Source: an uncultured Mycoplasmatota bacterium
GTDB lineage: Bacteria > Bacillota_I > Bacilli_A > RF39 > UBA660
Assembly: GCA_946402735.1 (NCBI GenBank)
Contig: CAMIXH010000001.1
Span: 5,983-69,982, forward strand
DNA length: 64,000 bases
Reading direction: 5' to 3'
The notes under the pieces were generated by a model that had not been told where the DNA came from, did no database searches, and worked only from the letters and a program-made list of their open reading frames with translations. Shown here piece after piece: positions 42,817 through 64,000 of this stretch; the stretch's first letter is position 1; each line of letters opens with the position of its first letter. Position numbers and translations under genes: made by a program.

Positions 42817-42858
42817 TTTTTATTTGAAAAATAAAGAAAAAAATAATTTTAAGGAAAT

Positions 42859-43013: not shown

Positions 43014-43039
43014 TAATCCACTAAGAACCACAGAAAGAG

Positions 43040-43234: not shown

Positions 43235-43613
43235 TGTAGTTAATTATGGAATGGATAAAACAACTAGTTTTAATTACATAGTTAGCTTAAACGATTTTCT
43301 AGATGATTATGATGAAGATACATGCAGTTATATAAAATCTCATATTAATGACATAATTGAAGCAGTTCATCAAAATGAAAATGTAGCTCAATTAGATTAT
43401 GATGAAAAAAGGCAAGAATTTGATATGGTGTTCTTTTTTGATAATTTAATGAGTCCACTTGAAAAAAGAATAATGGACACAGGAAAGAATATGGGAATTG
43501 ACTATGAATTAGATGATGTTAGATCTATTTCATATGATATTGAAAATTCTGATGAATATGATGATTTAATAACTAGCTCAATTAAGAATCATGATCTTGG
43601 AAGAGAAATGTAG
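43197..43613 (+). CDS. Hypothetical acidic protein
   Basis: RBS GGAGG; 138 aa ORF. Confidence 0.6.
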   Translation: MEKLSISKLIANDVVNYGMDKTTSFNYIVSLNDFLDDYDEDTCSYIKSHINDIIEAVHQNENVAQLDYDEKRQEFDMVFFFDNLMSPLEKRIMDTGKNMGIDYELDDVRSISYDIENSDEYDDLITSSIKNHDLGREM

Positions 43614-43621
43614 GTGATGTT

Positions 43622-43939
43622 ATGGTAAAACCTCATATTTCTATTTCAGAAGATTTAAAAAGTAGATTAGATGTTTATTGTAAAGAGAATAACTTTCAAT
43701 GTTTTTCTCATGGAGTTATTGATTTATTAGAAAAGGCATTAAGTCAAAATAAATTAGATAGAGTATTGGATAATATATTAAATTCAGTTGATAGATTAAA
43801 TTCAAGATCTAGTTATACTAGAGATTTACTAGAACAGTTATATTCAAATCTTGAAATTGAAACAGAGACTAATCCTAAAAATAATAAGTCATTACAAAAA
43901 TTTAAGAATAAATATATAAAGGATAAATTCAATGACTAG
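43622..43939 (+). CDS. RHH relaxosome accessory protein
   Basis: HISISEDLKSRLD.Y...FS..V..LL; overlaps the relaxase start. Confidence 0.55.
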   Translation: MVKPHISISEDLKSRLDVYCKENNFQCFSHGVIDLLEKALSQNKLDRVLDNILNSVDRLNSRSSYTRDLLEQLYSNLEIETETNPKNNKSLQKFKNKYIKDKFND

Positions 43940-45227: not shown

Positions 45228-45244
45228 TATAATTGGTGATTAAT

Positions 45245-46615: not shown

Positions 46616-46892
46616 TCAAAAGAAATTATCACCAGAACAAGAACAAATTACAAAAAAAGTTGTAGATGGATTAACAAATGATTCATCTGAAGAATTAATT
46701 AATCTAATGAAAGAGTGTAATATTAGTGATGGAGTTATAATGCTTACAATGTTAGGAATTGGAACACATACTGAATATTATAAAGTTCTTTATAATCGAA
46801 TAAACAATAATAAGGATAAAATGAATGATGATTTATTAAAAAAAGAAGTTGTTGATATATTACATGAAATAGATAGAAATGAAGATGAATAA
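46608..46892 (+). CDS. Hypothetical protein
   Basis: Overlaps the upstream stop; AAGGA RBS. Confidence 0.55.
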   Translation: MNNQKKLSPEQEQITKKVVDGLTNDSSEELINLMKECNISDGVIMLTMLGIGTHTEYYKVLYNRINNNKDKMNDDLLKKEVVDILHEIDRNEDE

Positions 46893-46921
46893 CATCTTCT
46901 TTTTTTGTGAAAGGAGGATAT

Positions 46922-48904: not shown

Positions 48905-48967
48905 GGATAGTCGATGAGATTATCCTCTTTTTTTATGTTATAATATATTATGAGAGTAGGTGTTATT

Positions 48968-50434
48968 ATGGCTAAAGGTCCACGATTAAATAATATATCT
49001 AGAAATTTTACTACGAGAGATAGTTTGGGAATAGAAGGCGTAGCTACATCGATATCTGCTGAAATATGTCCAATAGTAAATACAGTTACACCTAGACCAT
49101 TTTATTGGGCTTTTATTACTTGGTGTTATTATGACTTCTATAATAATTGTGAGCCTAAAGATAGAAGCTCTGATAATGTATATAAATATGTTAAAATGCA
49201 GAATTATTTTTTAGCATTAGCCAGTGATATTAATAACACTGATGTTTCAAATGGATTCACAGGTGCAGACACTATTCGTTCGAGAGTAGATTTAAATCAA
49301 GATTTATTTTCATATGATGATAAGTACTTGGTTACTGTATTAAGTAATATGGGATATTATCCAGCTGGATTATATACAATGGGATTTATTACGGATGTAG
49401 ATCCTGAAACAATGGATAAGTTTAAATATCCACATTTAACTCCTGAAGGTAAGAAACTAGCCGAAGCGTTCGATAATATAATTAGTACCACAAGATATTA
49501 TAAAGAATATAGAAGAAAAGTTACTGATATACCAAGAGATGTATTAATAGAACTAAATAACCAAATTAATATAAATTTAGATGGTTTTGATGATGTTAAA
49601 AAAATTCTTATAGAACATTTATTTAATAAAGAGAGTCAAAAAAAATTGATTGAGTCTCATAACTATTTAAAGTTTATTTTTAAAGAATATAAACCTGAGA
49701 ATATGAATACTGCTAAATGTAGAGAATTATTTTACGACTATTTTTCTCCATATTCAGATAATAAGTATAGATATCCTGAAGAGTTAAAAGAAATTATTGA
49801 TAGTTGGGAAATTGTCGTAGGAAGACAATATTTTACTTCTGGATTAGAAATGATATGGAAATATATGTTAGAAAACTTAAATAGTCCTAAGCTATATAAA
49901 GAATGGTTTAATGATTGTTTAAATAATTCTAAAATTGATTTTGAATTAACAGATAAACTTAGTTCAATTATTTCTTCATGCAATTATTCGTTTTCCGAAA
50001 GGGAAAACATGATAGCAGATGCTAGAAGTAGAAGTAGTAATCACGAATTAAATATTGCAAATGGTATTAAGATAATTTTATCTGTATATAATAGATTTTA
50101 TAATAGAAACGATTTCTCTAAAGATTGTAAAAATTATTATAATTATGGAATGGATAACAATTCTATTTCACTAAATGAATATTTTAAACTCGTAGAAGAA
50201 TATAAAGATAAACCAATAGAAGAATTTATTAAGTATATAATGTATCACTATTTATTAAATCAACATTTGAATACTGCATTTGAAAAAATGTTACAAGGTA
50301 GAGATGGATACTATATAGAAAAAATAGAAAATGAATATTCAAGAAAAGAATATTTTGATTTAGACTTTCAAGGGATTAGAATGGTTCAATTAGCTATGGT
50401 AATGCAAGATTTAAATGTATTGGAGGTTGAGTAA
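48968..50434 (+). CDS. Hypothetical protein, probable defence-system partner of the PLD nuclease
   Basis: N-terminal RDSLG....ICP..NTVTPRPFY..F motif; stop lies 2 nt before the PLD gene start. Confidence 0.55.
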   Translation: MAKGPRLNNISRNFTTRDSLGIEGVATSISAEICPIVNTVTPRPFYWAFITWCYYDFYNNCEPKDRSSDNVYKYVKMQNYFLALASDINNTDVSNGFTGADTIRSRVDLNQDLFSYDDKYLVTVLSNMGYYPAGLYTMGFITDVDPETMDKFKYPHLTPEGKKLAEAFDNIISTTRYYKEYRRKVTDIPRDVLIELNNQININLDGFDDVKKILIEHLFNKESQKKLIESHNYLKFIFKEYKPENMNTAKCRELFYDYFSPYSDNKYRYPEELKEIIDSWEIVVGRQYFTSGLEMIWKYMLENLNSPKLYKEWFNDCLNNSKIDFELTDKLSSIISSCNYSFSERENMIADARSRSSNHELNIANGIKIILSVYNRFYNRNDFSKDCKNYYNYGMDNNSISLNEYFKLVEEYKDKPIEEFIKYIMYHYLLNQHLNTAFEKMLQGRDGYYIEKIENEYSRKEYFDLDFQGIRMVQLAMVMQDLNVLEVE

Positions 50435-50435
50435 T

Positions 50436-52973
50436 ATGTTTGATAGAAGAATAGTGGAAGAAATATCAAATAGTAAAGGTTATTCAATTGCTCTATTAAC
50501 AACATTTAATTTTGAAATTAGCTATTTTGAAAGAGCAGTTTTAAATGCGTTATATGATAAAAATATTAAGAATATTGAATTATTTGTAGATGCAGATGAA
50601 CTTGAAAAAGCAGTATCAGAAAGTATAGATAATAATTTAAATAAAAAATATATTGCTAATCCAATTAGAATTAATTCAGCATTTCATCCTAAAGTTGTTT
50701 TATTATTTGGAGAAGAAAAAGCTAAATTAATTGTGGCTAGTGCAAATATTAAAACATCTGGATATACACTTAATAATGAAGTTTATAATGTATTTGAATA
50801 TAATAAAGATTATCAAGATAATTTAAATTTAATTAATGATGCAATTAGTTTCTTTGAAAGATTAAATAGTATGTCTTATTATCAAGATGAAAAGATATTT
50901 AATAGAATTAATGATTTGATTTATAGACACAGAAGAATAGATAATAATGATGTTAAATTAATTCAAAACTTAGATAAATCAGTTTTAGAGCAATTAAAAG
51001 AAATTATTACAGATAAAGTAGAATCAATTGATATTGCTGTTCCATACTATGACAATGAATTATTAGGATATAAAGATTTATCAGAAACATTTGATTGCAA
51101 AAATATTAACTTATATTTGCAAAACGGATTAAGTACATTCCCAGTAGATTATAATATTAATAATGGGATTGTGAATGCAGATAATATATATACATATTTG
51201 AAACTTAAAAGTAATGGTAAGAAAAACTTTTATCATGGAAAAGTGTTTAGAATTAATACAAATAATAAATCATTCATTCTATATGGTAGTTCTAACTGTA
51301 CTATGAGTGCTTTATCAAAAACATATCATAATGGTGGTAATATTGAATGTAATATTCTAGAGGAAGGAATTAAGTCTGATTTTGATTATTTCTTTGATAA
51401 CTTTGAGATTGAATCATTTGATGAACTAACTTGCAATATTATTGAATATGAGCCACAGGAAAAGAAAAATTTCAGTTTTAAATATGGGATAAAGAAAGAT
51501 GAAGTAAAACTATATCTATCATACAAAGATAAGAAAGATAATATTAAGATTCAAATAGGAGAAAAAGAATTATCGTATGAATATTATGAAAATGAACTAG
51601 TAATATTATTAGATAAACTAACATCTGACGAAATTAATAATATTTTTGATTTAAAAATAACAGTTGGAGATAATCAAGAGTTTATTAGGTGTTGGTATTT
51701 TGATATTGATACTATAGAAAATTATAGAAATGCTGAGAGAACATCATCTTTTGAAGATATTAATGTTGATGAAGATATGGAAAAATATCGTGAACATATG
51801 GAATTAATTGTAAGAACATTAGCTTTAACTAAAGATGAATATTCAGAACAAATGAAGTTACAAAAAATGCTAAATAAAAAATCTAATTTAGAGAATCAAG
51901 AAGATTTAGATGAAGATGAGATAGATGATAACTTTATTATTGATAAAGATATACCAGATGAATATATAAGAAAAAATAAAGATTTTACAAATGCATATAT
52001 TAAATCTAGATTATTCTCAGATCGTTTCTTTAAAGGTTTAAAACTAAAAGGAAGTAGTAGTGGTTCTTCTTCAATTCATACAGATAATAAACCAAGTGAA
52101 AGTGAAAAAAAGAAAAGACCAGCTACACCTGCAGAAAAAAGATTTGAAAGATTTATTAAGAGTAGAGTAAAAGGAATACTTAGAGATGAGTATATAGAAC
52201 TTGTAGATTATGAACATTATAAAAATAGTATTGGAGTTATTCTTGATGTAATTAATGAATACAAATATAAAGAACAAGTTGAAGATATATTTGAAGATAA
52301 GTATGTAATAGAAATATCATTAGATTTAATTAATAGACTTCTAGAAAAGGAATCAATGAATCATGAACAAGATGAAAAAGATACAACGATTATTCTTACA
52401 TTTATAGCAGTTATAGAAAATCATATGTTAAATAATTCTGAAGAAAATAAAGATTATAAAGTTGAGTTGCTAAATAAGGAAATTATAAAACAACTTAATC
52501 AATTATTTAATATTAGAGAGAGTTTTGAAGAATTATTAGAATATGCAGTTAATAATATAAATCAAAAAATTGGAAATATAGATTATGATACTGCTAAAAA
52601 CTATATTGAATCTTTATTTGGATATAGAACTAATGAACAATTACTAGATGTTATTAAACATGAATATGGAGAAGATTCTAAAATTGAGATTAACGATAAT
52701 AATGTTAAAATAGAAACATCAACTGATAATATCACTAAATATTTAAAATTAAATGATCTCCCAATTATAGAAATAAGAAAATACTATAAAAACAATAATG
52801 CCAGATTAGATAATATAAATATAATAATTAAAAATCTAAAAAATGATTATCCAAGTACTGCTGATCCAATAAATATTCTAGAATATATTCTTAATGAAGA
52901 AACTAGAAAATATTATCAAAAAATTACAAGAAAATCCGGAATAGAAGACAAAATAAAAGAAATCAAGATTTAA
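50436..52973 (+). CDS. Phospholipase D-family nuclease-like protein
   Basis: LLTTFNF, FHPKV...ASANI...NNE and YHGKV...YGSSNCT...NIE: two HxK half-sites. Confidence 0.75.
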   Translation: MFDRRIVEEISNSKGYSIALLTTFNFEISYFERAVLNALYDKNIKNIELFVDADELEKAVSESIDNNLNKKYIANPIRINSAFHPKVVLLFGEEKAKLIVASANIKTSGYTLNNEVYNVFEYNKDYQDNLNLINDAISFFERLNSMSYYQDEKIFNRINDLIYRHRRIDNNDVKLIQNLDKSVLEQLKEIITDKVESIDIAVPYYDNELLGYKDLSETFDCKNINLYLQNGLSTFPVDYNINNGIVNADNIYTYLKLKSNGKKNFYHGKVFRINTNNKSFILYGSSNCTMSALSKTYHNGGNIECNILEEGIKSDFDYFFDNFEIESFDELTCNIIEYEPQEKKNFSFKYGIKKDEVKLYLSYKDKKDNIKIQIGEKELSYEYYENELVILLDKLTSDEINNIFDLKITVGDNQEFIRCWYFDIDTIENYRNAERTSSFEDINVDEDMEKYREHMELIVRTLALTKDEYSEQMKLQKMLNKKSNLENQEDLDEDEIDDNFIIDKDIPDEYIRKNKDFTNAYIKSRLFSDRFFKGLKLKGSSSGSSSIHTDNKPSESEKKKRPATPAEKRFERFIKSRVKGILRDEYIELVDYEHYKNSIGVILDVINEYKYKEQVEDIFEDKYVIEISLDLINRLLEKESMNHEQDEKDTTIILTFIAVIENHMLNNSEENKDYKVELLNKEIIKQLNQLFNIRESFEELLEYAVNNINQKIGNIDYDTAKNYIESLFGYRTNEQLLDVIKHEYGEDSKIEINDNNVKIETSTDNITKYLKLNDLPIIEIRKYYKNNNARLDNINIIIKNLKNDYPSTADPINILEYILNEETRKYYQKITRKSGIEDKIKEIKI

Positions 52974-53006
52974 TAGAAGATAAATAAAATTATCTTCTTT
53001 TTTTTG

Positions 53007-53025
53007 TTTATAACAAACACGAAAG
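53007..53025 (+). repeat. 19-bp direct repeat/operator, copy 1
   Basis: TTTATAACAAACACGAAAG identical to 57381-57399. Confidence 0.85.
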
Positions 53026-53057
53026 ATTTTATGGTATAATATTTCAGGAGGGATACT

Positions 53058-53276
53058 ATGATTTCTAAATTAATATATTTATATCACAAGAAAAATAGAT
53101 ATCTTCAATCTTATATACAAGATTTAATTGCTGACAAAACTGACTTTGAACCTCATAAAATAAAACTTGAAATATCATCAAAAGAAAATAATTCTCAAGA
53201 GTTTAACCACTTTATTTTTAGCTATAATGGATTGAGATATGATTTACTTGATGATGAATTAAAAATAATAGGATAA
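53058..53276 (+). CDS. Small hypothetical protein
   Basis: TGGTATAAT promoter and AGGAGG RBS upstream. Confidence 0.55.
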   Translation: MISKLIYLYHKKNRYLQSYIQDLIADKTDFEPHKIKLEISSKENNSQEFNHFIFSYNGLRYDLLDDELKIIG

Positions 53277-53419
53277 AGAACAATTAAATTTGTTCTTTTT
53301 TCTTTCGTAATTGTACAAAAAATTGACATTTTTATGTTATAATTATAAATGAGTGAAAATATGAGGTAGTTATAAATTATAGTTTACCTTTTAATTCATT
53401 TAATGGGGAGGAAAAATTA

Positions 53420-54217
53420 ATGGGTAGCAATATTTATAGTAGTAAAAATAAGTTGAACGATTTAACTGGTTCTGAATGGAAGTTTTCAACTAAATCAGTT
53501 ATTAATAAAGCATATCCAATAAATATGCAACATAAATTAAGATCTCAACATGGAGGACAAAAACCACCACAATTATGTGAAGATATTATAAAAATCTTTA
53601 CTAAAAAAGGTATGATAGTTTTAGATCCATTCATGGGTGTCGGTGGTTCCTTATTAGGAGCTTCATTATGTGATAGAAAGGCTATAGGAATTGATATCAC
53701 TGAAAAATGGATAGATATTTATAAACAAGTATCGGAACTAGAGAAACTAGAAATTCAGCAAACATATTGTGGCGATTCATTTAAAGTTTTGAATAAAATC
53801 GAAGATGAAAGTGTTGATTTCATTTTAACCGATGTTCCTTATTGGAATATGGATGCATTAGAAAAAACAAGAAACAAAACAGTAAAACAATCTAAACTGA
53901 ACAATTTTGAAAATAACTCTGAAGGTCAATCAAAAAAAGATTGGCTAAATAATATGAAAAAGATATTAGGAAAAGCATCTAAAAAACTTAAAAAAGGCAA
54001 ATATATGGCAGTTTTTATAGGAGATATGTATAGAGATAGTGAATATCATTGTTTATCAGGAGAACTTGCATTGAAATTGTCAGAAATTGATGGATTAACA
54101 ATGAAGGCAAATTTAATTTGGGAGGATAATAGCAAGTCATTACATGTCTTTGGGTATCCAGCTGCATATGTTCCATCAATGATTCATCAAAATATTTTAA
54201 TATTTAGGAGGGATTAA
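53420..54217 (+). CDS. DNA amino-methyltransferase (N4-C/N6-A)
   Basis: VLDPFMGVGG (motif I) precedes TDVPYW (motif IV-like). Confidence 0.85.
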   Translation: MGSNIYSSKNKLNDLTGSEWKFSTKSVINKAYPINMQHKLRSQHGGQKPPQLCEDIIKIFTKKGMIVLDPFMGVGGSLLGASLCDRKAIGIDITEKWIDIYKQVSELEKLEIQQTYCGDSFKVLNKIEDESVDFILTDVPYWNMDALEKTRNKTVKQSKLNNFENNSEGQSKKDWLNNMKKILGKASKKLKKGKYMAVFIGDMYRDSEYHCLSGELALKLSEIDGLTMKANLIWEDNSKSLHVFGYPAAYVPSMIHQNILIFRRD

Positions 54218-54218
54218 T

Positions 54219-56018
54219 ATGAGATTAAAAAGCAAATACAATTTCAAAAAATTTGATTTAAATGTTAAAAATAAATTTATTGTATATGGAGATAATCTTG
54301 AAGAGTCTACTCAAATTATTAAATGGCTTTATGATTTCAATTCCGATAGAATGAAATTTATTGGAATGGAATATGCATCTTTATCTGAATATATATACAA
54401 ATATTCAATAAATAATGAAATGTATTATTTTGTAGCAAAAGCATATTATAGAAATGGAAAATTACCTTATGATGTAAGACATGTTATTAAGGAATTAGAT
54501 AAACCAGATGCAGTTATATATTCAGAAGATGATGAAAAAGTTTTAATGGGATTCGAAACTACATCTACTACTATGGCAGGTAATGCAACATGGCAGAGAA
54601 CAGGAAGAATTATCAATTTCTTAGAAATGGGAATTCCTTTTGGATTTTTAGCTTATTTTAGCAAAAATGACAAGTCTGATACTAATGTAAATAAAAAGCC
54701 GAGAATTCCAGGTGCATTATTTGTGCTATTATTTAATTTACTTTCTTTAAAATATCACACACCTGCATTAGTTGGATTCTTTGAACACCCAGATAAAGCA
54801 CAAAATAGAGATGCACTAAATCCAAATGATGATTGGAGAGAAGCAATCTTCAAATATTTATTATCATTAATATTAAAAGAAAATGGAGAAGAACACTTAG
54901 AAAAATGTTATTCAAATATGAAGAATTATTATTTTAGTTCTGACAAAATAAAATCAACATTAAGTGAATTTGGTTCAACAACACTTGATTACATGAAAGA
55001 TAGTAATTTTTCAAAAAATATTATTGATGACATGAAGAATAAGAATAATGTTCCATTTTATGATAAAAGTAAATTATTATTTGATTGGACACCAAAAAAG
55101 ATTACTGAAAAAGTTCACGAACTATTTCCCAATATTAAGTTTTATCAAATATCAAAAAATTGCAAAGCAGGAATAACATTTCAAACAGAAGAATTAATAG
55201 ATATATTAAATAAAAATAAAAAGGTATATGTAGAAGATAACTTTAAAAATATACATGCACCTACTGTTGTAATACCAATAAAATTAACAAAACTTGATAA
55301 TAAGACAGGAAATATTGTTCCGACAGATGATCCATACAATGGTGAAATTCCAGCTTTTGCAAATCTATATTTACAATCATTTCCTAATGCAAATGTAATG
55401 TTATTGTTGTGTGATCATACTAATAAAAATGAATATAATGTTGAAGGAGCTAAAGGAAGAAAAGTATATAAATCAATTGATAAATATGCTGACGTTGTTG
55501 CAGATATGGATCTTAATTTATTTAGTAGAGAATCCGAAGGCTCAAGAATTGAAAACAAGAGTAAATATGAAAATCAATTTACAACAGAAGATGATGTTAC
55601 TTCTTTCTTTGGAACTGTTTTATTGAATGAAGGAATTGTTCCATCATTTATTAATCCACCTTGTGGAAGTTGGTCTGATATTCATTTATATCCTACAGAT
55701 AAATACTATTATTATAATAGAAATGATGATAGGGGAGATATTGCATTCTTTGATCCAGATGATGAAACATATTACTTTGGTGAAAGTAAAAAAGACTATA
55801 GAACATTAGCATTAACAATGGAAGAAGAGTATAGAAAGACAATGAATTTATCGCAAATTGTTTTAAACGAATTGGATAATAAGTATCAAACAAGATTATT
55901 TGCAATTTTTAAAGGGAATAAAGATGAAGCTAAAAAAGTATTAGATAATTCTAAGTTTGATTTTGTTGTAACAGTAGATGATACTGATGAAGTTACTCTA
56001 GAGGTCGTAGAAAGATAA
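54219..56018 (+). CDS. Putative restriction endonuclease
   Basis: Lies between two MTases; PDAVI...FETT and GDIAF...GESKK PD-(D/E)xK-like motifs. Confidence 0.6.
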   Translation: MRLKSKYNFKKFDLNVKNKFIVYGDNLEESTQIIKWLYDFNSDRMKFIGMEYASLSEYIYKYSINNEMYYFVAKAYYRNGKLPYDVRHVIKELDKPDAVIYSEDDEKVLMGFETTSTTMAGNATWQRTGRIINFLEMGIPFGFLAYFSKNDKSDTNVNKKPRIPGALFVLLFNLLSLKYHTPALVGFFEHPDKAQNRDALNPNDDWREAIFKYLLSLILKENGEEHLEKCYSNMKNYYFSSDKIKSTLSEFGSTTLDYMKDSNFSKNIIDDMKNKNNVPFYDKSKLLFDWTPKKITEKVHELFPNIKFYQISKNCKAGITFQTEELIDILNKNKKVYVEDNFKNIHAPTVVIPIKLTKLDNKTGNIVPTDDPYNGEIPAFANLYLQSFPNANVMLLLCDHTNKNEYNVEGAKGRKVYKSIDKYADVVADMDLNLFSRESEGSRIENKSKYENQFTTEDDVTSFFGTVLLNEGIVPSFINPPCGSWSDIHLYPTDKYYYYNRNDDRGDIAFFDPDDETYYFGESKKDYRTLALTMEEEYRKTMNLSQIVLNELDNKYQTRLFAIFKGNKDEAKKVLDNSKFDFVVTVDDTDEVTLEVVER

Positions 56019-57040
56019 TGAAATATATAGGGAATAAAACCAGAGTTATTGATTTCATAGAGCAATCATTAAAAGATGCTAATATAGACTACTCAAATAA
56101 GACAGTTATAGATTTATTTGCTGGAACAGGAAGTGTTAGTTCATTCTTTTTAGAAAACAAATCAACAGTTTATTCTTGTGATAATATGTTTTACAGTATT
56201 TGCGAGCAATATAGAACTAATTATTATACAGAAGAGCCAACTTTCGAAGAGTTAAAAGAACTTATAGATGATATATCTTTAGATGGAGTCTTAGAATATT
56301 TAAATAATGTTAAACCCAAAAAAGGTTATTTCTTTAATAATTATGCACCAGATGGAAGTGAACATAGACAATATTTTTCAAATGAGAATGCAATGAAATT
56401 AGATGCAATTCGAGAAAAAATTAGCAAATGGGAAAAATTTTTGCCTTATGAAAAAAAATGTTTCTTGCTTGGCATACTAATGTGTGCAGCTGATAGAGTT
56501 TCAAACACATCTGGAACATACGGAGCATATTTAAAAATATGGAGATCAATGGCTCTTAAGGATTTAATACTAGAAAAGCCAAAGTTTTATAAGCATCAAT
56601 TTAACTATATCGAATTGGATGATGTATTGAATTGTGTTTCCAAACACAAAAATGTAGATATCATATATATGGATCCACCATATAACAAAAGACAATATGC
56701 AAGTAATTTTCATGTTTTAGAAAATATTGTTGTATATGATAAGCAAGAATTGAAAGGCAAAACTGGATTAAGAGAATATACTAATCAAAAATCTGATTAT
56801 TGCATCAAAAATAAAGTAAAAAAATCATTTGAAGAATTGGTTAATAACATGGATGCAAATGTTCTTGTAATGAGTTATAGCACCGAAGGGTTGTTATCTG
56901 AAAAAGAAATACTAGAAGTCTTAGAAAAAAAAGGAAAGACAACGGTATATAGATATGATTATAGGCGTTTTAAAACAAATGCTTGGACAGAAGGAAATAC
57001 GAGTTTACAAGAGTTGTTATTTATATGCAAAATAAAATAG
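56018..57040 (+). CDS. DNA adenine methyltransferase (D12 class)
   Basis: MKYIGNK, DLFAGTGSVS, YMDPPYN.RQY. Confidence 0.9.
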   Translation: MKYIGNKTRVIDFIEQSLKDANIDYSNKTVIDLFAGTGSVSSFFLENKSTVYSCDNMFYSICEQYRTNYYTEEPTFEELKELIDDISLDGVLEYLNNVKPKKGYFFNNYAPDGSEHRQYFSNENAMKLDAIREKISKWEKFLPYEKKCFLLGILMCAADRVSNTSGTYGAYLKIWRSMALKDLILEKPKFYKHQFNYIELDDVLNCVSKHKNVDIIYMDPPYNKRQYASNFHVLENIVVYDKQELKGKTGLREYTNQKSDYCIKNKVKKSFEELVNNMDANVLVMSYSTEGLLSEKEILEVLEKKGKTTVYRYDYRRFKTNAWTEGNTSLQELLFICKIK

Positions 57041-57049
57041 GATTTAATC

Positions 57050-57322
57050 CTATTTTTTTTCATCTATCCTAGAATAATTTGTAATATGTTCTTTATTATA
57101 TGTAAGTAAAAGTGTTGCTGTAACTTTAGAATTGTGATCAAATTTATTAATATTACTTGCAAATTTATCTACGGTTGCTAAACGAACATTTACCTTTAAA
57201 TTTTCAATTTGATTTAAATACGAAAGTGATGTACCTAGTATCTCTGCAAATTTTTCTTGAGATAAGTTATGCTTCATTCTATAATATCTCAAATTAATAG
57301 CTAAAATCTCAATCAATTTCAT
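57050..57322 (-). CDS. XRE/C-protein-like HTH regulator
   Basis: LAINLRYYR...LSQEKFAEILG.S.SYLNQIEN. Confidence 0.85.
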   Translation of the reverse strand: MKLIEILAINLRYYRMKHNLSQEKFAEILGTSLSYLNQIENLKVNVRLATVDKFASNINKFDHNSKVTATLLLTYNKEHITNYSRIDEKK

Positions 57323-57355
57323 AATCTTACCTCCTTATTTGTTATACAAATTTAT

Positions 57356-57399
57356 TTTATAGAAACACGAAAGGAATGTCTTTATAACAAACACGAAAG
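57356..57399 (+). repeat. Tandem operator-like repeats, copies 2 and 3
   Basis: TTTATAGAAACACGAAAG and TTTATAACAAACACGAAAG upstream of the divergent HTH gene. Confidence 0.8.
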
Positions 57400-57519
57400 G
57401 AAATGAGTATAATACTATTTACAAATTAGATTAAATAGTCTATTATATGTATGTAATAAAAGTTCAACTTCATACTTATATTTTTTTACAAATAATGTTG
57501 AATCATTAGAGGTGGAATT

Positions 57520-57831
57520 ATGGATATAGATACATTGATTGATATGCTTAAAGATTATTGTAGGGATTCCAACAAAAGTGATGATAAAGAAATATTTAAT
57601 TCATATCAACAACAATATTTAAATGGTTATGCAGGTGTCATCATTAATAGTATTGATGATAAATTTGAAATATATACATATATAAAAAATAAAGATAAGA
57701 TTGCAAGTCCATTATTATTATGGAAGACTGATTCAGAAGAAAAGGCAAATAATTATTATAATAGATTAGTTGAGATAATAAAGTCTCAAGATTATAATGT
57801 TTTAATTGGTTTTTGTAAATCAGGTCTTTAA
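57520..57831 (+). CDS. Hypothetical protein
   Basis: GAGGTGG RBS; 103 aa ORF. Confidence 0.55.
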   Translation: MDIDTLIDMLKDYCRDSNKSDDKEIFNSYQQQYLNGYAGVIINSIDDKFEIYTYIKNKDKIASPLLLWKTDSEEKANNYYNRLVEIIKSQDYNVLIGFCKSGL

Positions 57832-57836
57832 TTAGG

Positions 57837-57891
57837 GTACGGAAAAAGTACGGAAAAGGTACGGTAAAGGTACGGAAAAAGTACGGAAAAG
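57837..57891 (+). repeat. Five tandem 11-bp repeats GTACGG(A/T)AAA(A/G)
   Basis: Units start at 57837, 57848, 57859, 57870 and 57881. Confidence 0.95.
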
Positions 57892-58216
57892 GAATATTGC
57901 TTTTTCATTTCAATATGGTAGAATGTAGTAAAGTGAATAATTATGAATTAAATAATTATTCATTTTTTGTTGCTTTATTATTGCTTTTTCAAAAAAAAGT
58001 GATATTATAGATAACAATTAGTGATTTTGTAGGGATGAAGGTGGTTTATATGAGAATCATTCAACTCGGATTTTCACAATTATCGTTAGTCAACTTGATA
58101 AGTAAATATAAGGACTCATACCCTAAAAAATTAGATTTAAATGAATATAAGAAGAGCAGTATCAATTCTTAACGGATTTTCTGCTCTTCTTTTATTTATA
58201 ATAAGGGAGGTTTTGA

Positions 58217-58648
58217 ATGAAATTATTAAGTACAGAAGTAATAGACAAATATGATTACTTAAAAACAAATCAAAAAGTAAAAGAATATATGTCTAAATTT
58301 GAAGATGATTATTACAGATATGTAAGTATACTTCCACCTAGTATATCTTCGCACTTGAGTGAAATTAAAGTTCAATCAAGTTTTAGTAATACATCATCAA
58401 TTGAAACATATGTAATTAAGAAAACTGAAAAGGAGGAAAAGTTTCTTCAAACATTAGATAAGATTCTAAGAGTTTTAGATTCATTTAATCAAGAAGAGCA
58501 AAGGTATTTTAAAGGAGTATTCTTTTTAGGAAATTCAGAACCAGTAATATCTGAAGAATTGCAATGTGCAGATAAAAAGATTAGACACATTAAAAAAAGT
58601 AGTATTATAAAATTTGCTCTAGCAATGGATCTAGCAATATTAAAATAA
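58217..58648 (+). CDS. ArpU/RinA-family transcriptional activator
   Basis: KT..KV...; C-terminal sigma4-like HTH; IKK.SIIKFA.AM. Confidence 0.7.
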   Translation: MKLLSTEVIDKYDYLKTNQKVKEYMSKFEDDYYRYVSILPPSISSHLSEIKVQSSFSNTSSIETYVIKKTEKEEKFLQTLDKILRVLDSFNQEEQRYFKGVFFLGNSEPVISEELQCADKKIRHIKKSSIIKFALAMDLAILK

Positions 58649-58720
58649 ATTAAGATAAACTTAATAATTTCATTATGCACCTTAACGGGTGTTTTTTTAT
58701 GGAAAAATTTAGGAGGTTTT

Positions 58721-58864
58721 ATGTTAGGAAAAATTTTAGGAATTATCTTTTTAATACTTATAGGAGTATTTGCTGTGTGTTCATGTAAGGTTGCTTCATG
58801 GGCAGATCAAGAAATGGAAGAAGATTTGAGAAAGAGGAAACAAAATGAGAAGAAAAACATATAG
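58721..58864 (+). CDS. Small membrane protein (47 aa, absent from the ORF track)
   Basis: AGGAGG RBS; MLGKILGIIFLILIGVFAVCSCKVASWADQEME... Confidence 0.55.
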   Translation: MLGKILGIIFLILIGVFAVCSCKVASWADQEMEEDLRKRKQNEKKNI

Positions 58865-59048
58865 AGCAACTATTATTAATAGTGGGCATACTTCAGTTAT
58901 GCTTGTTGGAGGATACAATAAACCATCAGTTAAGAAACAATTAACTGATTTTTTTATTAAAACTAATCAAATTAAAGACTATACAAAATTTGAAATCTAT
59001 TTAAAACAAGTTGTTTATATAGATGGTAATTATGTGGAGGTTGAATAA
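58845..59048 (+). CDS. Small hypothetical protein
   Basis: 67 aa ORF in the operon leading to the recombinase. Confidence 0.55.
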   Translation: MRRKTYRATIINSGHTSVMLVGGYNKPSVKKQLTDFFIKTNQIKDYTKFEIYLKQVVYIDGNYVEVE

Positions 59049-59050
59049 AC

Positions 59051-59227
59051 ATGGATGATATTAAAACATTTGAATTGGATGCTAAAACACAAGATTTTGT
59101 AGATTTAAATATAATAATAGCTTTATTTAAATCATTTGTTAGAGACAAAGTAATTACGAATAAGGAATGTGATTCACTAATTGAATATGTGAAACGCACC
59201 ATGATATTAGAAGAAGAAATAATATAA
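59051..59227 (+). CDS. Small protein (58 aa), candidate recombination directionality factor
   Basis: GGAGG RBS; MDDIKTFELD...; immediately upstream of the serine recombinase. Confidence 0.5.
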   Translation: MDDIKTFELDAKTQDFVDLNIIIALFKSFVRDKVITNKECDSLIEYVKRTMILEEEII

Positions 59228-59254
59228 ACTTTTGATTAGAAAGGAACGAGTAAT

Positions 59255-60973
59255 ATGGGAAGAAAGGTAGCAATTTATGCAAGAGTATCTACTGAACATG
59301 AAGCTCAGATAAATGCATTAGAAAATCAAATTCAGTATTATGATAATAAATTAAGTGAACATCCCGATTGGGAATTATATGATAGATATATAGATGAAGG
59401 AATAACAGGAACTTCTGTTAATAAAAGAAAGAATTTTATGAGAATGCTTAAGGATGCAGAAAAGGGCTGCTTTGATTTAATTATTACTCGTGAAGTATCT
59501 CGATTTGCAAGAAATACAGTTGATACTTTACTTGAAACGAGAAAGTTAAAAAGAATGGGAGTTGAAGTTTATTTTACAGAAGATAATATTTGGACTTTTA
59601 AAGATGAAGATGGCGAATTAAAATTAACTTTAATGGCAACACTTGCTCAAAATGAAAGTAAAAAAACATCAATGAGAGTAAAAGCAGGGCAAAAAATTTC
59701 GTTCCAAAATGGTGTATATTATGGTAGTGGAAATATTATGGGATATGATCGTGTCGGAAAAGATGCTGTAGTCAATGAAGATCAAGCTAAAATTGTAAGA
59801 TTAATATTTCAATTATTTTTAGAAGGTAAGGGTGTAACTAAGATAAAATATGAACTTGAACAAAGAGGAATCCCAACTGCCACAGGTTTGAAAGTTTGGA
59901 ATGTTGCAACTATTTCAAGAATGCTTCAAAATTCATTTTACTGTGGAACAGTAGTTTATAATAAAGAATTTACTGCAGATTATTTAGAACAAAAGAAAAG
60001 AAAGAATCATGGTGAAGTAGAACAAACAATAGTTGAAGGAAAACATGTTCCAATTATTTCAAAAGAAGATTTTGAAGCTGTTCAAAAATTAATAAAAAAA
60101 CACTCAATATATTTAGAAGATGGCATAAGGAAAAAATTGATAGGTTCACCTAGAAATATATGGTCTCAAAAACTAATATGCCATTGTGGTTCTAGATTCA
60201 ATAGAAGAGTCTATAGTGGAGCAGGTACAGATCATCAATTATATTCTTATTATTGCTATAAGCAAAAAAATGAAGGCTCTGCTAGAAAAAGAAAAGAGCT
60301 TGGACTTGATTATGAAGGATTTTGCGATGTAGTACAAATTAATGAATGGAAACTAGAATTAATGTTTAGTGTTTTACTAAAAAATCTTATCAAAAATAAA
60401 GATAAATTAAGAACTATTGCAAAAACTGCAATTGAAAGTAGTGCATTAGCTGAAACAGTTAATAATGAAATACTTAATGAAATAAAAGAAATAAATATTA
60501 AATTAACAACAAATAAATCCAGGTTAGATAAATTATTGAATGCATATCTAGATAATATGCTTACAAATGAAGAGTACTCTTCTAAAAGAAAAGAATTAGA
60601 AGATACAATTATTACATTAGAAAATAGACTTAAAGAATTAGAAGAAAATTCTAAAAATCAATCTATATCAGTAAAAGATAAAATAAATATCTTAAAACAA
60701 AAAGTAGATATGTTATTGGATATTGATACAAATGAAATAAGTGATGTATTAATAGATTCAATAGTAGATAAAATTACAGTTCATAATGATAGATATGAAT
60801 GGAAAATAAATTATATCAGTTCATCATCTGAAGAAAATGACGAGAATAATAATGGTGTATTCTTTGCTAGAATGATAATAACAGTTGATGAAATAAAAAG
60901 ATATAATGATAAAAAAAAGATATTAAAGAAGGTGTTTCAAAAAGATCCAATAGTTATGGATATATATATTTAA
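59255..60973 (+). CDS. Large serine recombinase (ICE integrase)
   Basis: YARVST, DEGITGT, REVSRFARN, recombinase domain, Zn ribbon (ICHCG...YYC) and coiled coil. Confidence 0.95.
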   Translation: MGRKVAIYARVSTEHEAQINALENQIQYYDNKLSEHPDWELYDRYIDEGITGTSVNKRKNFMRMLKDAEKGCFDLIITREVSRFARNTVDTLLETRKLKRMGVEVYFTEDNIWTFKDEDGELKLTLMATLAQNESKKTSMRVKAGQKISFQNGVYYGSGNIMGYDRVGKDAVVNEDQAKIVRLIFQLFLEGKGVTKIKYELEQRGIPTATGLKVWNVATISRMLQNSFYCGTVVYNKEFTADYLEQKKRKNHGEVEQTIVEGKHVPIISKEDFEAVQKLIKKHSIYLEDGIRKKLIGSPRNIWSQKLICHCGSRFNRRVYSGAGTDHQLYSYYCYKQKNEGSARKRKELGLDYEGFCDVVQINEWKLELMFSVLLKNLIKNKDKLRTIAKTAIESSALAETVNNEILNEIKEINIKLTTNKSRLDKLLNAYLDNMLTNEEYSSKRKELEDTIITLENRLKELEENSKNQSISVKDKINILKQKVDMLLDIDTNEISDVLIDSIVDKITVHNDRYEWKINYISSSSEENDENNNGVFFARMIITVDEIKRYNDKKKILKKVFQKDPIVMDIYI

Positions 60974-61043
60974 AGATGTTATAATTAAAGTGACATATTT
61001 GATAGAATTTATTTTTTTGATATTAATTTTTTGAAAAAATAGC

Positions 61044-61103
61044 TTCTTTACAATTCCAATTATTTACGCAGCACAAGCTGCAATTAAAGCAAAAAAGAAC
61101 TAA
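61044..61103 (+). other. attR of the ICE plus displaced ppdK tail (QAAIKAKKN*)
   Basis: GCACAAGCTGC core; the in-frame ppdK-like tail ends at TAA 61101-61103. Confidence 0.85.
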
Positions 61104-61114
61104 TATAATCAATT

Positions 61115-61142
61115 AAAAGACTAGGTGAAACTAGTCTTTTTT
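61115..61142 (+). terminator. Cassette terminator 1
   Basis: AAAAGACTAG-gtgaaa-CTAGTCTTTT plus T-tract. Confidence 0.85.
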
Positions 61143-61237
61143 GCTTACACATAAAACATTATGTTTTAAAAAAAGAGTAATGTAAAAATGTTAAATTTGT
61201 AATATAATGTAATTATAATGATTTTGGAGGAATAAAT

Positions 61238-61663
61238 ATGGAAAGAAAAATAGTTCTATTATTATTAGTTTTTGCAACTTTATTTATTATAACTGGATGT
61301 AAAAAGAAAAAAGATAATTCTGAAGGTGTAGATAGCATTAAAATTGTTTCAAATATTGAATTAGGAAAAAAACAATATATTGAACAGCTTAAAAAAGTAT
61401 CGATAGATGGTACTGACGATTATTTAATTATTACAAAAAAAATCAAATGGGAAGTGCCAGAACATGAAGACGGAGCAACAGTTAGTTTTGCGATTAATAT
61501 ACCATATACATTACACGTTGATGGTAAAGATTATAGTGCTCAATATTGTTTAAATGATTGTTACGGTCAAAATCAAGGTGTTGATGGTAACCCAAAATAT
61601 GTTTTTGAAATTACTAATTTAACAAGTAATTATGAAACTGAGATATTAGTAAATAAAAAATAG
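61238..61663 (+). CDS. Lipoprotein (cassette 1)
   Basis: Lipobox ITGC after a hydrophobic signal; GGAGG RBS. Confidence 0.8.
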   Translation: MERKIVLLLLVFATLFIITGCKKKKDNSEGVDSIKIVSNIELGKKQYIEQLKKVSIDGTDDYLIITKKIKWEVPEHEDGATVSFAINIPYTLHVDGKDYSAQYCLNDCYGQNQGVDGNPKYVFEITNLTSNYETEILVNKK

Positions 61664-61808
61664 TAGAAAATATATTGAGTTTGATAAATAGAATAAACAA
61701 ATCATTTTAGTTTTATTAATGCCGAAATATATTTAGGTATATACAACTGTAATAGAAGGAATGCTTAAAGTGTAAAAAAGTACTAAAAACAGTATAAATT
61801 TCACCATC

Positions 61809-61903
61809 CCGAATGGAGCAGTTGTACAAGCTGCAATCAAAGCAAAGAATAATTAGTTTAGTATTTAAAGACTAGATTTTTCTAGTTTTTTTTATGGTAT
61901 AAT
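61809..61903 (+). repeat. Cassette junction 2: CCGAA-N12-ppdK tail (QAAIKAKNN*)-terminator-TGnTATAAT
   Basis: Direct alignment with junctions 3 and 4. Confidence 0.85.
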
Positions 61904-61920
61904 TGACTTAGGTGGAAACT

Positions 61921-62487
61921 ATGAAAGACTTGTTTGATGTAATTCCTGTTTTAGATAATGGTAATATATGTCTAAAAAAAGTGACAATTAGTGATTTAGA
62001 GAGTATCAAAGACATGTTACTTTGTACTGATGTATATCGTTATGTTCCACCATTTGTACCAGAATTACAATGTAATGGGAATATAGAATATTTTATAAAT
62101 ACTATGTGTAAAAAATTATTCGATAAAAAAGTTGCAATTATACTTGGAATATATTCAAAATACTATAATGATCAACTTTGCGGACTATTTGAATTATATC
62201 ATTATATTTCTGATGAAATGAAAGTATCAATTGGATATCGATTGAATAAAAAATTTTGGAATAAAGGAATTGCTACTGAAGCTACTTCATTAATTATAAA
62301 TTATTTATTTAATCAAACTGATATTACCACGATATCTTCAAGCAATATGGTTGATAATCCAGCTTCAGGTAGAGTCTTAGAAAAAAATGGTTTTTTTAGA
62401 ATAGAAGAAGCTATATTAGAAGAATGGGGTTTTTCTCAAAAAGTTTATGTCGATAAATGGATACTTAAGAAAACAAAATTAAAATAA
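61921..62487 (+). CDS. GNAT N-acetyltransferase, RimJ/RimL type (cassette 2)
   Basis: IGYRLNKKFWNKGIATEA, NPASGRVLEKNGF. Confidence 0.9.
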   Translation: MKDLFDVIPVLDNGNICLKKVTISDLESIKDMLLCTDVYRYVPPFVPELQCNGNIEYFINTMCKKLFDKKVAIILGIYSKYYNDQLCGLFELYHYISDEMKVSIGYRLNKKFWNKGIATEATSLIINYLFNQTDITTISSSNMVDNPASGRVLEKNGFFRIEEAILEEWGFSQKVYVDKWILKKTKLK

Positions 62488-62611
62488 TCATTTTAGTTTT
62501 GTTCATTCCGAATGGGTACATGCTACAAGCTGCAATAAAGGCAGGAAGTAATAAATAGTAAAAAATGTAATTAAGACTAGATGACTAATCTGGTCTTTTT
62601 TATGATATAAT
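62488..62611 (+). repeat. Cassette junction 3: TCATTTTAG-N11-CCGAA-N12-ppdK tail (QAAIKAGSNK*)-terminator-TGnTATAAT
   Basis: Starts immediately after the GNAT stop codon. Confidence 0.88.
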
Positions 62612-62641
62612 ATAACACAACTAATTGAAAAGGTGATTTGT

Positions 62642-63217
62642 ATGGAATTATATCAAATAGACAATGAAATTAAGAATTGTAACTTATGTGGCTGCATGGT
62701 TGAAAAATTTAATAATGATGCAACGGTTTCTATTGGTAAAAAATCCGATATTGTAATATTAGGGGAGGCACCTGCAAATAATGGATGGAGAAAAAGCGGA
62801 ATTGCATGGCATGACGAAAATCATAAATTGTTGCCATCTGGAGTTGTTTTAGAAAGATTATTGAAATTAATTAATTATTCATTGAAAGATATATATTTTT
62901 TAGAAGCAATTAAATGTTATCCAAAGAGTAGAAAGTATTTAAAAGAGTGTAGTAATAATTGTAGAAAGTATTTGTTAGAGCAATTGCTTATTATTGATCC
63001 TAAAATAATATTAACATTAGGAGACATTGCAACAAGAACATTGCTTGATATTAAATATTCAAAATTTGGCAATGTAGCGGGGAAATGTTTTAATTATGAA
63101 GGATATGATGTTATACCAATATATCATCCCAGTCCTATTTCACCATTAAGTTATGGTGGTAATGTAGAAATATTTGAAAATGTTATCAAAGAAAAAGTAA
63201 AAGCATTAACGAAGTAA
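62642..63217 (+). CDS. Uracil-DNA glycosylase family 4-like protein (cassette 3)
   Basis: CNLC, ILGEAPA, IKCYP, PKII.TLG, PIYHPSP. Confidence 0.85.
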   Translation: MELYQIDNEIKNCNLCGCMVEKFNNDATVSIGKKSDIVILGEAPANNGWRKSGIAWHDENHKLLPSGVVLERLLKLINYSLKDIYFLEAIKCYPKSRKYLKECSNNCRKYLLEQLLIIDPKIILTLGDIATRTLLDIKYSKFGNVAGKCFNYEGYDVIPIYHPSPISPLSYGGNVEIFENVIKEKVKALTK

Positions 63218-63224
63218 ACAATTG

Positions 63225-63344
63225 TCATTTTAGTCTATTTCGTCCCGAACCTCACATGGTGACAAGCTGCAATTAAAGCAAAGAAGGAAAATAAATAATA
63301 TTAATAGAGACTAGGTAAAACTAGTCTTTTTTTTATGATATAAT
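63225..63344 (+). repeat. Cassette junction 4: TCATTTTAG-N11-CCGAA-N12-ppdK tail (QAAIKAKKENK*)-terminator-TGnTATAAT
   Basis: Same spacing as junction 3. Confidence 0.88.
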
Positions 63345-63364
63345 TGATATAGGTTGGTGATAAT

Positions 63365-64000
63365 ATGAGAATAGCTATTTTTTCTGATATACACGGGAAT
63401 AAAGAAGCACTAAAATCAATTATTGATGATATCAATAACAATAATATTGATGAAATTATTTGTTTAGGGGATACAATTGGAATTGGTCCTAATCCTAAAG
63501 AATGTATGGATATGATAATAAGTAATAATATTAAAATGGTTTTAGGTAATCATGAATTATATTTTTTAAAAGGTACTGATATAGATGATGAAATGGGAGA
63601 AGGAGAAATAAAACACCAAAATTGGATAAAGAAACAAATTACAAATGATCAAAATGAATATTTAGAAAATTGTACCTTGTATATTGAAAAGATGATAAAT
63701 AATAAGAAAATACTATTTATACATTTTCCAATTGATTATAATTCCAAAGATGATTATCCATTTCACGATTTAAAAATAGCAAAAGATGGATCAATTAGAA
63801 ATGTAATTGAATCATTGGATTATGATTTGATATTTATAGGTCATGAACATAATAATTTTTGTATAGATAATAAATTATATGATGTTGGTTCTTCTGGATG
63901 TACAAAGGATAATACTACACTATATACAATAATAGATACCAATACATTTAATGTAGAAAGAAAAAGTATTAAGTACAATAGAAAACAATTTGAAGAAGAT
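63365..64000 (+). CDS. Calcineurin-like metallophosphoesterase (cassette 4), 3'-truncated by the window edge
   Basis: MRIAIFSDIHGN, CLGD.IG.GP.P.EC, LGNHE, GHEH; not in the ORF track. Confidence 0.88.
   Translation, partial: MRIAIFSDIHGNKEALKSIIDDINNNNIDEIICLGDTIGIGPNPKECMDMIISNNIKMVLGNHELYFLKGTDIDDEMGEGEIKHQNWIKKQITNDQNEYLENCTLYIEKMINNKKILFIHFPIDYNSKDDYPFHDLKIAKDGSIRNVIESLDYDLIFIGHEHNNFCIDNKLYDVGSSGCTKDNTTLYTIIDTNTFNVERKSIKYNRKQFEED

Follow-up and report, generated by a model that had tools for sequence, protein, structure and literature searches.

The window is the whole 64,000-nucleotide stretch of DNA analysed here, G000:C1:5983-69982, from an assembly (G000) of 1.28 Mb in 15 contigs with 26% G+C. 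It carries ppdK, an ICE (integrative and conjugative element) inserted in the 3' end of that gene and, past the ICE, an array of small units that repeat the ppdK tail. The gene order xer - tdk - ppdK (window 24701-26186) is conserved. The coordinates of the features are collected in Table 1.

The window has four exact copies of the 12-nt core ACAAGCTGCAAT (61073, 61826, 62525 and 63262), which are 753, 699 and 737 bp apart. At least five matches were obtained in none of 100 dinucleotide-preserving shuffles, which average 0.32. A repeat search returned the same four-copy core family together with two families in register with it, a hairpin and a right-end motif. The array continues beyond the window, where positions are given as window-equivalents: at window-equivalent 64114 (G000:C1:70096) there is a fifth exact core, and ACAAGCTGCGAT at window-equivalent 65446 is the sixth. 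The six ppdK-tail cores past the ICE, four of them inside the window, bound five units of 0.7-1.3 kb, and the last tail is probably the native one. A profile built from 28 junctions matches the G000 genome at full length only at the six array junctions, with four partial hairpin-promoter matches downstream.

All five units read on in the frame of ppdK, with QAAI followed by 5-7 residues and a stop codon. Across loci, QAAI with a short tail and stop in the ppdK frame is found at all 56 junctions examined (two with one substitution); 33 of them have a hairpin, followed in 24 cases by TGnTAYAAT. The hairpin, AGACTAG-N6-CTAGTCT, lies 3' of the tail between A and T runs and has arms of 7-10 bp and a spacer of 6 nt. 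A scan for terminator-like sites gives 5 per 5 kb against 0.5 expected, and the six hairpins fold with -10.4 to -15.2 kcal/mol (z -3.1 to -5.8). Immediately 3' of the T-run, units 2-5 have a TGnTATAAT box, which is absent from unit 1, and a purine-rich ribosome-binding site and a start codon come 20-35 nt past the box. The hairpin is a predicted terminator and the box a predicted promoter; the whole basis of the promoter assignment is the extended -10 motif and its position. The two strands of G000 together have 406 copies of TGNTATAAT (chance 0.002 per 12-nt window), and the plus strand of the 20-kb island has 16, where about 3 are expected. A generic sigma-70 two-hexamer promoter scan of the array region was uninformative because the DNA is AT-rich (39 sites, 39.9 expected). 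Every unit closes with a right arm of 40-60 nt that abuts the next core. No Rfam family matches in 18 kb of the island, and Pfam and NCBIfam give no recombinase or relaxase domain in the six cargo proteins of units 1-5.

The ICE carries a helix-turn-helix gene and genes for a SpaA/thioester adhesin, a TraG P-loop/VirB4-like ATPase, a MobA/VirD2 relaxase, a T4 coupling protein and a large serine recombinase (LSR). In the LSR, S12 is invariant in four homologues, and among PDB structures the enzyme best matches a conjugative-transposon recombinase and the SPbeta, TP901-1, TnpX and A118 enzymes. No Pfam zinc-ribbon family matches at E<=0.001; the alignment shows invariant cysteines at 309, 311, 334 and 357. 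The Ccr models score 138 (CcrB), 104 (CcrC) and 41 (CcrA) bits, with cut-offs of 900, 900 and 700. Arm symmetry about the central dinucleotide is the form expected of an LSR attP. For the attP of the ICE, comparison of the right arm with the reverse-complemented left arm gives 19 agreements in 30 positions (null mean 8.9, sd 2.5, P ~1e-4); the outer 14 are nearly identical, and there is one best centre among shifts of -6 to +6.

Most of this plan had been recognised in the sequence-only reading, namely the recurring ppdK tails with their periods, the ICE in ppdK-proximal position at the same site, and units made of tail and stop, hairpin, TGnTATAAT (in units 2-4), one gene and an end motif. 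Its proposal of serial insertion at the last ppdK codons, with a replacement tail each time, is supported. Extending the contig to count units, as it had suggested, added two cores and the fifth unit.

Table 1. Features of the ppdK locus and the array in G000 (window coordinates)
Feature	Position (strand)	Details
Xer-type tyrosine recombinase	24701..25594 (+)	two genes upstream of ppdK; NCBIfam XerC/XerD scores just below cut-off
ppdK	26210..28906 (+)	898 aa; Pfam PF01326, PF00391, PF02896; post-core codons come from the ICE (tail AIKAGIEKKN*)
attL core	28867..28878 (+)	ACAAGCTGCTAT; within ppdK; 1 mismatch to the repeat
ICE	28868..61073 (+)	~32 kb; in ppdK 3' end; bounded by cores at 28867 and 61073
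ICE LSR	59255..60973 (+)	572 aa; adjoins attR; PF00239 (4.9e-28), PF07508 (2.1e-28)
ICE right arm (P arm) and attR core	61044..61084 (+)	inverted repeat with ICE left arm, centred between C and A of aCAagc
Unit 1	61073..61825 (+)	tail QAAIKAKKN* 61074-61103; hairpin 61115-61142; class-B right arm up to 61825
Unit 1 cargo	61238-61663	141-aa lipoprotein-like open reading frame (ORF), no Pfam family
Unit 2	61826..62524 (+)	tail QAAIKAKNN* 61827-61856; hairpin 61867-61894; TGGTATAAT 61895-61903; class-A right arm
Unit 2 cargo	61912-62487	GNAT ORF (PF13302)
Unit 3	62525..63261 (+)	tail QAAIKAGSNK* 62526-62558; hairpin 62573-62597; TGATATAAT 62603-62611; right arm 63222-63261
Unit 3 cargo	62633-63217	ORF of the uracil-DNA glycosylase (UDG) superfamily (PF03167)
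Unit 4	63262..64000 (+), on to window-equivalent 64113	tail QAAIKAKKENK* 63263-63298; hairpin 63306-63329; TGATATAAT 63336-63344
Unit 4 cargo	from 63365	metallophosphoesterase ORF (PF00149), 233 aa in full
Unit 5	window-equivalent 64114-65445, outside the window	two genes: 211-aa Cys-rich protein and 134-aa NUDIX protein

Single units have further features. In unit 1 (window 61700-61753) a class-A-like arm, tcattttagttttattaatgccgaa, is followed at 61743-61753 by a degenerate junction, ACAACTGTAAT, that was read by eye; therefore, the last 80 bp of the unit may be a near-empty cassette that consists of the class-B arm only. Unit 3 has a homologous cassette in genome G043 with an identical arm family. 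The 211-aa Cys-rich protein of unit 5 (L001:3304-3936, window-equivalent 64221-64853) has no Pfam, NCBIfam or PADLOC match. Its homologues are 64-78% identical in G014, G044 and G021, and a 210-aa copy with 91% nucleotide identity is found in contig L154. The only Atlas lead is to DUF2284 clusters, mostly viral (score 0.94, recognition below the usual level). PADLOC gave two weak matches among 10 cargo proteins, the NUDIX protein to the PDC-S07 candidate (4.9e-9) and a STAND ATPase to IetA (2.9e-4), and no claim of a defence function is made.

Arrays, empty sites and recombinases in the genus

The genus sample comprises 50 species genomes, and all of the arrays come from short-read metagenome-assembled genomes (MAGs) or contigs. 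BLAST searches of 40 relatives with the array found junction matches, in clusters, within the same genus. Of the 50 species, 9-12 have the array architecture, as do 41 of 80 contigs from metagenomes. The core pattern CAAGCYGCNATHAA occurs in 44 of the 50 genomes, 12 of which have at least three copies, and the reversed-pattern control in none; the exact hairpin is found in nine, nearly always on array contigs (control 0). Eight species examined have an empty site, in which ppdK ends AINNK* and is followed by conserved non-cassette DNA with no hairpin. G011 is the empty form of G015, with DNA past the last tail that is 95.5% identical over 512 bp, and G053 is the empty form of G056 (93.2% over 906 bp). 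Among 80 ppdK loci outside the genus, the junction profile matched only one, at its ppdK end, and no array architecture was found in this sample; the four of these loci with the closest G+C have a tail and a terminator of the plain kind.

The Xer-type gene upstream of ppdK is present as a single copy, ~4.2 kb from the ppdK core, in 45 of the 50 genomes, including those with an empty site, and is judged to be a housekeeping gene outside the cassette system; its distance from the core recurs wherever the two share a contig. The tree of this gene covers 40 of the 50 genomes; G014 and G019 gave no match. To place the seven hairpin carriers on this tree takes four gains or losses, of which well-supported branches force three, and a single origin is found in 0% of bootstrap trees. 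The carriers are clustered, since only 3 of 500 shuffles were as low. G000 has three tyrosine recombinases (PF00589), which are two Xer-like genes and a 426-aa integrase on contig 14, and two serine recombinases, which are the ICE LSR and a small one on contig 13 with an internal stop. The IntI model TIGR02249 found nothing above its cut-off in the G000 genome, in line with the negative outcome that the sequence-only reading expected of IntegronFinder, and there is no Y1 transposase in this genome.

Homologues of the ICE LSR with 49-55% identity lie beside cores in G003 (two), G015 and G045 and in contigs L178, L134 and L152. The G015 element at ppdK is 5.5 kb long, and its LSR gene (G015:C1:440915-442453) has one in-frame TAG, which is either the mark of a pseudogene or a case of stop readthrough. 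The LSR element at the core in G045 is 7.3 kb long.

Two other elements were observed that touch on the ICE. A 6.2-kb element without a recombinase, present in L113 (G056) and L109 (G045), encodes a radical-SAM-like protein, HtpG (634 aa) and a small heat-shock-like protein. Its left arm and tail (AIKAGIEKKN*) are as in the G000 ICE and its right arm is different; its proteins are 96-100% identical between G056 and G045. In a MAG of another genus (L030:10888-11090), of which 88% of the ppdK tail region was matched, a hairpin and leader come after the ppdK terminator and look, by eye, like the left end of the G000 ICE, which suggests that ppdK is a target of the same ICE family in that MAG.

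Unit sizes, right arms and cargo turnover

The metagenome scan used one tail type and gave at least 120 matching stretches, from which 80 loci were taken; it is biased to short contigs and units and to that tail type. Among the 80 loci listed, 41 have at least two cores and give 66 units. The genus loci add 31 fully delimited units of 446-7255 bp. With three units removed because the left core lies inside a long ORF, 94 were kept, with a median of 1037 bp (interquartile range 754-1671). The small and large units differ in their make-up. Units of up to 1 kb have the hairpin in 35 of 41 cases, an extended -10 in 25 of 41 and one gene in 40 of 41, while for those above 3 kb the counts are 2, 0 and 0 of 7.

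The 148 right arms from all sources fall into families that are common to unrelated cargo, the sizes being 25, 17, 17 and 9. Two arm families mix LSR-adjacent and LSR-less members. The 39 right arms from genus loci have CC at -18/-17 (32 and 29 arms), A at -15 (31) and A at -1 (35) in a genome with 26% G+C, although these counts are not independent because the arms are related. By eye, one arm family has an outer ppdK-like segment, and the CC-A-A motif is shifted by 6 bp between the ppdK arm and the element arms. The distances are at odds with the usual LSR half-site.

For most cargo proteins the other sampled arrays contain no homologue, and the few that recur are found in different orders. 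On the Xer tree G000 falls into one group with G003 and G013 (support 85/89), and it has no close cargo in common with either of them. The sole cargo common to G003 and G013 is a two-gene cassette for a radical SAM/SPASM protein and a 5-hydroxymethyldeoxyuridine (5-hmdU) DNA kinase (HMUDK; PF18723, 7.6e-106). Such genes serve thymidine hypermodification and are usually found in phages. The cassette lies at L012:5585-7731, in L019 (reverse strand, 5396-7493 oriented) and in L164, with 90-100% identity across the three sources, G003 versus G013 among them. Between G003 and G013 the identity on the right side stops at the core, and the left tail, hairpin and promoter are far less alike.

Four cassette pairs were aligned with 350-bp flanks. 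Three of them, the dCMP-deaminase cassette (G004/L197), the DUF6036 cassette (G004/L156) and the L127/L159 pair, are at least 95% identical over the unit and fall to background beyond the cores. In the fourth pair (L146/L129) identity begins past the hairpin. Parts of unit 5 of G000 also occur alone. Its 211-aa gene is a stand-alone cassette in contig L154, and its NUDIX half is a separate 640-bp cassette in contig L182, where it lies beside ppdK; in G000 it is in the last unit. Identity between the NUDIX cassettes is 93.8% (662 bp) and 97.1% (515 bp), whereas that between the 3' ends of the host ppdK genes is 81.0% (469 bp). Cassettes have been transferred across species. The variable content and order that the sequence-only reading had proposed to look for in relatives is therefore present, as empty sites in eight species, sister-species arrays that are almost wholly different, and the same cassette in differing contexts with breakpoints at the core.

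Origin of the cassettes

The array is probably, at about 70%, the result of tandem accretion of non-autonomous mini-cassettes that are moved by ppdK-specific LSRs supplied in trans. The effect would be integron-like and the mechanism would resemble that of cis-mobilisable elements (CIMEs) and of the staphylococcal cassette chromosome (SCC). The 3' end of ppdK, with codons A-Q-A-A-I, would be the attB of the LSR family, and the crossover would fall at the CA of aCAagctgc. An entering element would bring two arms, a left arm (P') that encodes a substitute ppdK tail and stop and a right arm (P) that stops at the core; the ppdK-proximal junction would therefore be attB-like again, so that the next arrival would displace earlier ones downstream. 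Autonomous occupants of the site would be the 32-kb ICE in G000 and the 5-7-kb elements in relatives. The mini-cassettes would form a distinct non-autonomous lineage with a median of ~1 kb and no recombinase gene, on a chassis in which the tail, the predicted terminator hairpin (AGACTAG-N6-CTAGTCT) and the extended -10 come before a ribosome-binding site and one gene, and a right arm of 40-60 nt, from one of a few families, comes last. LSRs acting in trans, or in cis from neighbouring ICEs or integrative and mobilisable elements (IMEs), presumably integrate, excise and co-transfer these cassettes. We infer that the LSRs move the mini-cassettes and that these pass through circles.

Several observations weigh against this explanation. 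The own-arm symmetry of the five G000 units is 9, 6, 9, 14 and 9 of 30, where the null mean is 8.9; over all units it is high in a few (19, 16, 15, 14 and 13 of 30) and at background in most, which gives no support for LSR recognition of the G000 units. Among the arm families with cargo only, the three largest (25, 17 and 9 members) contain no arm next to an LSR. No LSR match at E<=1e-20 was found in the array genomes G013, G014 and G021, which are MAGs of 76-91% completeness. None of the 80 metagenome contigs is circular or contains a tandem duplicate, and many array contigs terminate at a core, so the order of the arrays may be mis-assembled across the ~90-bp repeats. Tails are near-uniform within the arrays of G003 (AINNK*), G014 (AIKEKQAEKEAKK...) and G043 (AIKSGANK*) in L012, L014 and L105, and vary from unit to unit in G000, G013 and G044. 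Because of the uniformity within a genome, a simple import of ready-made cassettes is no sufficient explanation.

The DNA that follows the array in G000 adds to these points. In G000:C1:71500-86450 (window-equivalent 65500-80470; L001, L024), hairpin and TGnTATAAT occur together at C1:76165, 78705, 79440, 81397 and 86400 and the hairpin alone at C1:76727, and all six of these modules have neither ppdK tail nor core. Their genes include GNATs, NUDIX, HD, a cyclophilin-like protein, lipoproteins and a BspA-type leucine-rich-repeat protein. This core-less region is probably an older, eroded part of the array. A core-flanked cassette of G044 has an 83%-identical homologue in the core-less part of G000, which suggests that old junctions erode.

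The units could also be fossils, that is, immobile deletion remnants of larger ICEs or IMEs at ppdK that diverge in place. A metagenome unit of 1.4 kb (L130:1222-2625) has the usual tail, hairpin and promoter, starts with a 66-aa C-terminal relic of an LSR and continues with an unrelated 247-aa gene; therefore, some units are deletion remnants. For units 1-5 of G000 the earlier claim that no unit encodes a recombinase stands. Decay would also fit the in-frame TAG in the G015 LSR, the several array genomes without a cognate LSR match and the left/right arm symmetry that most units lack, and remnants are the usual fate of such elements according to the accessible text of a review (PMC5704250). 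As a general account it is nevertheless unlikely. The stereotyped left module of the small units is mostly missing from the large LSR elements (hairpin counts above), the coding fraction is ~0.75-0.83, and no pseudogene debris was seen in the G000 units. Many unrelated genes are bordered by the same right-arm families, cassettes with at least 95% identity sit in differing contexts, one cassette is far more alike between two hosts than their ppdK genes are, and sister species have almost no cargo in common. Since the small units swap neighbours and hosts as discrete modules and have a chassis of their own that is absent from large elements, they seem to be an LSR-dependent cassette lineage rather than random wreckage.

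Movement might instead need no site-specific enzyme. The ~90-bp module of core, tail, hairpin and promoter would then be portable homology, through which homologous recombination after DNA uptake gains, loses and reorders cassettes. This would account for modules that are near-identical within a genome (a match of ~65 bp in G003), for the cassette pair that breaks past the hairpin and not at the core, for the core-less hairpin-promoter junctions further downstream and for the mosaic of 90% and 100% identity in the radical-SAM cassette. It leaves unexplained the 40-60-nt arm families across unrelated cargo, the CC-N-AA motif at a fixed distance from the core and the LSR elements at an identical core, and three of the four pairs do break at the core, which makes it quite improbable. 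An even smaller chance is given to a hairpin-based system, of integron/attC-like, HUH single-strand or Xer/dif-module-like type, in which the palindrome would be the recombination site and the ppdK-side Xer the enzyme. Such a role is suggested by a palindrome (7-10-bp arms, 6-nt spacer) confined to array genomes (9 of 50), by the Xer-type gene two genes upstream of ppdK and by the existence of hairpin-only junctions. The position of that gene is constant in the 45 genomes, empty-site ones too; nothing like IntI scores above its cut-off and Y1 is absent from the genome; shared cassettes break at the core in three of four pairs; and the terminator scan rates hairpin and T-run as an intrinsic terminator of the ordinary kind. 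The same spacer length, breakpoints and equal presence of Xer in empty-site genomes bear on the Xer-dependent modules, integrative mobile elements exploiting Xer (IMEX) and pdif.

The accretion of LSR-moved mini-cassettes may also be part of something more organised, a dedicated LSR-run cassette system that is the functional analogue of an integron. The tail mimic would keep the ppdK-proximal junction attB-like while internal junctions would be attP-like, so that both entry and excision could run as attP x attB reactions with no directionality factor and cassettes could shuffle freely. The right-arm families would play the part of attC, and cargo would be newly loaded into the insulated, self-expressed chassis and would not be left over from decay. 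This stronger form is possible but doubtful.

Known systems and biological meaning

The comparisons that follow refer to the accessible parts of each cited paper. In Bacteroidota, the same ppdK codons are an integration site of conjugative transposons of the PvCTn family, with the stop regenerated within 2-3 residues (PMC11005914); therefore, the site of the ICE is not new in kind. The PvCTn family differs in phylum and in consisting of whole conjugative transposons only, and the word "tandem" is absent from the accessible text of that paper. A likeness to the array is found in the accretion of CIMEs with ICEs (ICESt1/ICESt3; PMC5704250), in which elements without integrase or transfer genes retain att sites where the target gene has its 3' end, lie in tandem with an ICE of the same site and regenerate the end of the target. 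The ppdK units share the att-type direct repeats of the target 3' end, the lack of their own integrase and transfer genes and the integrase-bearing ICE at the same site, besides LSR elements at that core in G003, G015, G045 and four contigs. Known CIMEs are decayed, heterogeneous remnants, mostly at tyrosine-recombinase sites (PMC5704250), whereas the ppdK units are a uniform family with five or more in a row and an enzyme of the LSR family at the site. With regard to an origin of CIME type by decay, one LSR relic was found, the small-unit chassis is uniform and absent from large elements, and the main arm families have no LSR member.

Composite SCC islands at rlmH (PMC13739063) are similar in that LSRs act on a single-copy housekeeping gene, at its 3' end, each boundary has a direct repeat, some members lack a recombinase and the oldest member lies furthest from the gene. 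They differ in the rlmH target, the Ccr enzymes, the size of many kb per element and a lower size limit of 1 kb in the tool of that paper, whereas the units here have ppdK as target, a recombinase that is not Ccr and single-gene units of 0.45-1.7 kb. The ssrA islands of Dehalococcoides (PMC3146451) likewise have a serine recombinase, there of CcrB-like type, and lie in tandem with a 20-bp repeat of the target 3' end and conserved bases upstream of the repeat. Some of them have no integration module and are proposed to be cis-mobilisable (PMC3146451). In contrast to the ppdK units, they use a tmRNA target and are multi-gene, and the text describes no stereotyped terminator-promoter chassis. In Prochlorococcus, tycheposons (bioRxiv 10.1101/2020.12.28.424599) likewise integrate one after another at a single site and push older elements into an island, with remnants and partial target repeats downstream, but the elements are multi-gene, carry their own integrase and mostly use tyrosine recombinases at tRNA genes.

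The array resembles an integron as a growing, shuffled row of mostly single-gene cassettes at one site, with the newest nearest the entry and variable accessory cargo. It differs in having no IntI and, for each cassette, its own predicted terminator and promoter in place of Pc. The promoterless cassettes of integrons are not what is found here, since TGnTAYAAT, a predicted promoter, is present at 24 of 33 hairpin junctions. The palindrome is 5' of the gene, and the point of attachment is inside a housekeeping gene that each cassette must rebuild.

Because elements of 5 to 32 kb with an LSR use the identical core, the cassettes fit the frame of non-autonomous elements accreted at a recombinase att site, as in CIMEs, SCC and the ssrA islands. 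The distinct, self-contained gene-capture system proposed in the sequence-only reading is therefore probably not what this is. What is new here is the minimal, uniform, self-expressed single-gene format, the use of a few arm families across unrelated cargo and arrays of five or more, through which the locus would act like an integron with another chemistry. No description of arrays of single-gene cassettes at a serine-recombinase site or at ppdK was found in the literature, supplements not covered.

Studies of LSR att-site specificity would have a ready set in the compact arms and in this natural series of related recombinases, whose arm families differ. Much of the cargo concerns the chemistry of nucleotide pools and DNA bases, with UDG, NUDIX, HD 5'-deoxynucleotidase-like, dCMP deaminase, deoxynucleoside-kinase-like, HIT and Ada zinc-binding proteins, radical SAM with 5-hmdU DNA kinase, and GNATs, and this points to a selective theme that can be tested. 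A mobile element could, if the explanation is true, reuse one essential-gene site indefinitely by rebuilding the target with each insertion. If LSRs move the cassettes, integron-style gene shuffling would have a second route, unrelated in mechanism to the first, and it would operate in gut Bacillota with small genomes (~1.3 Mb) that have few other visible means of gene exchange.

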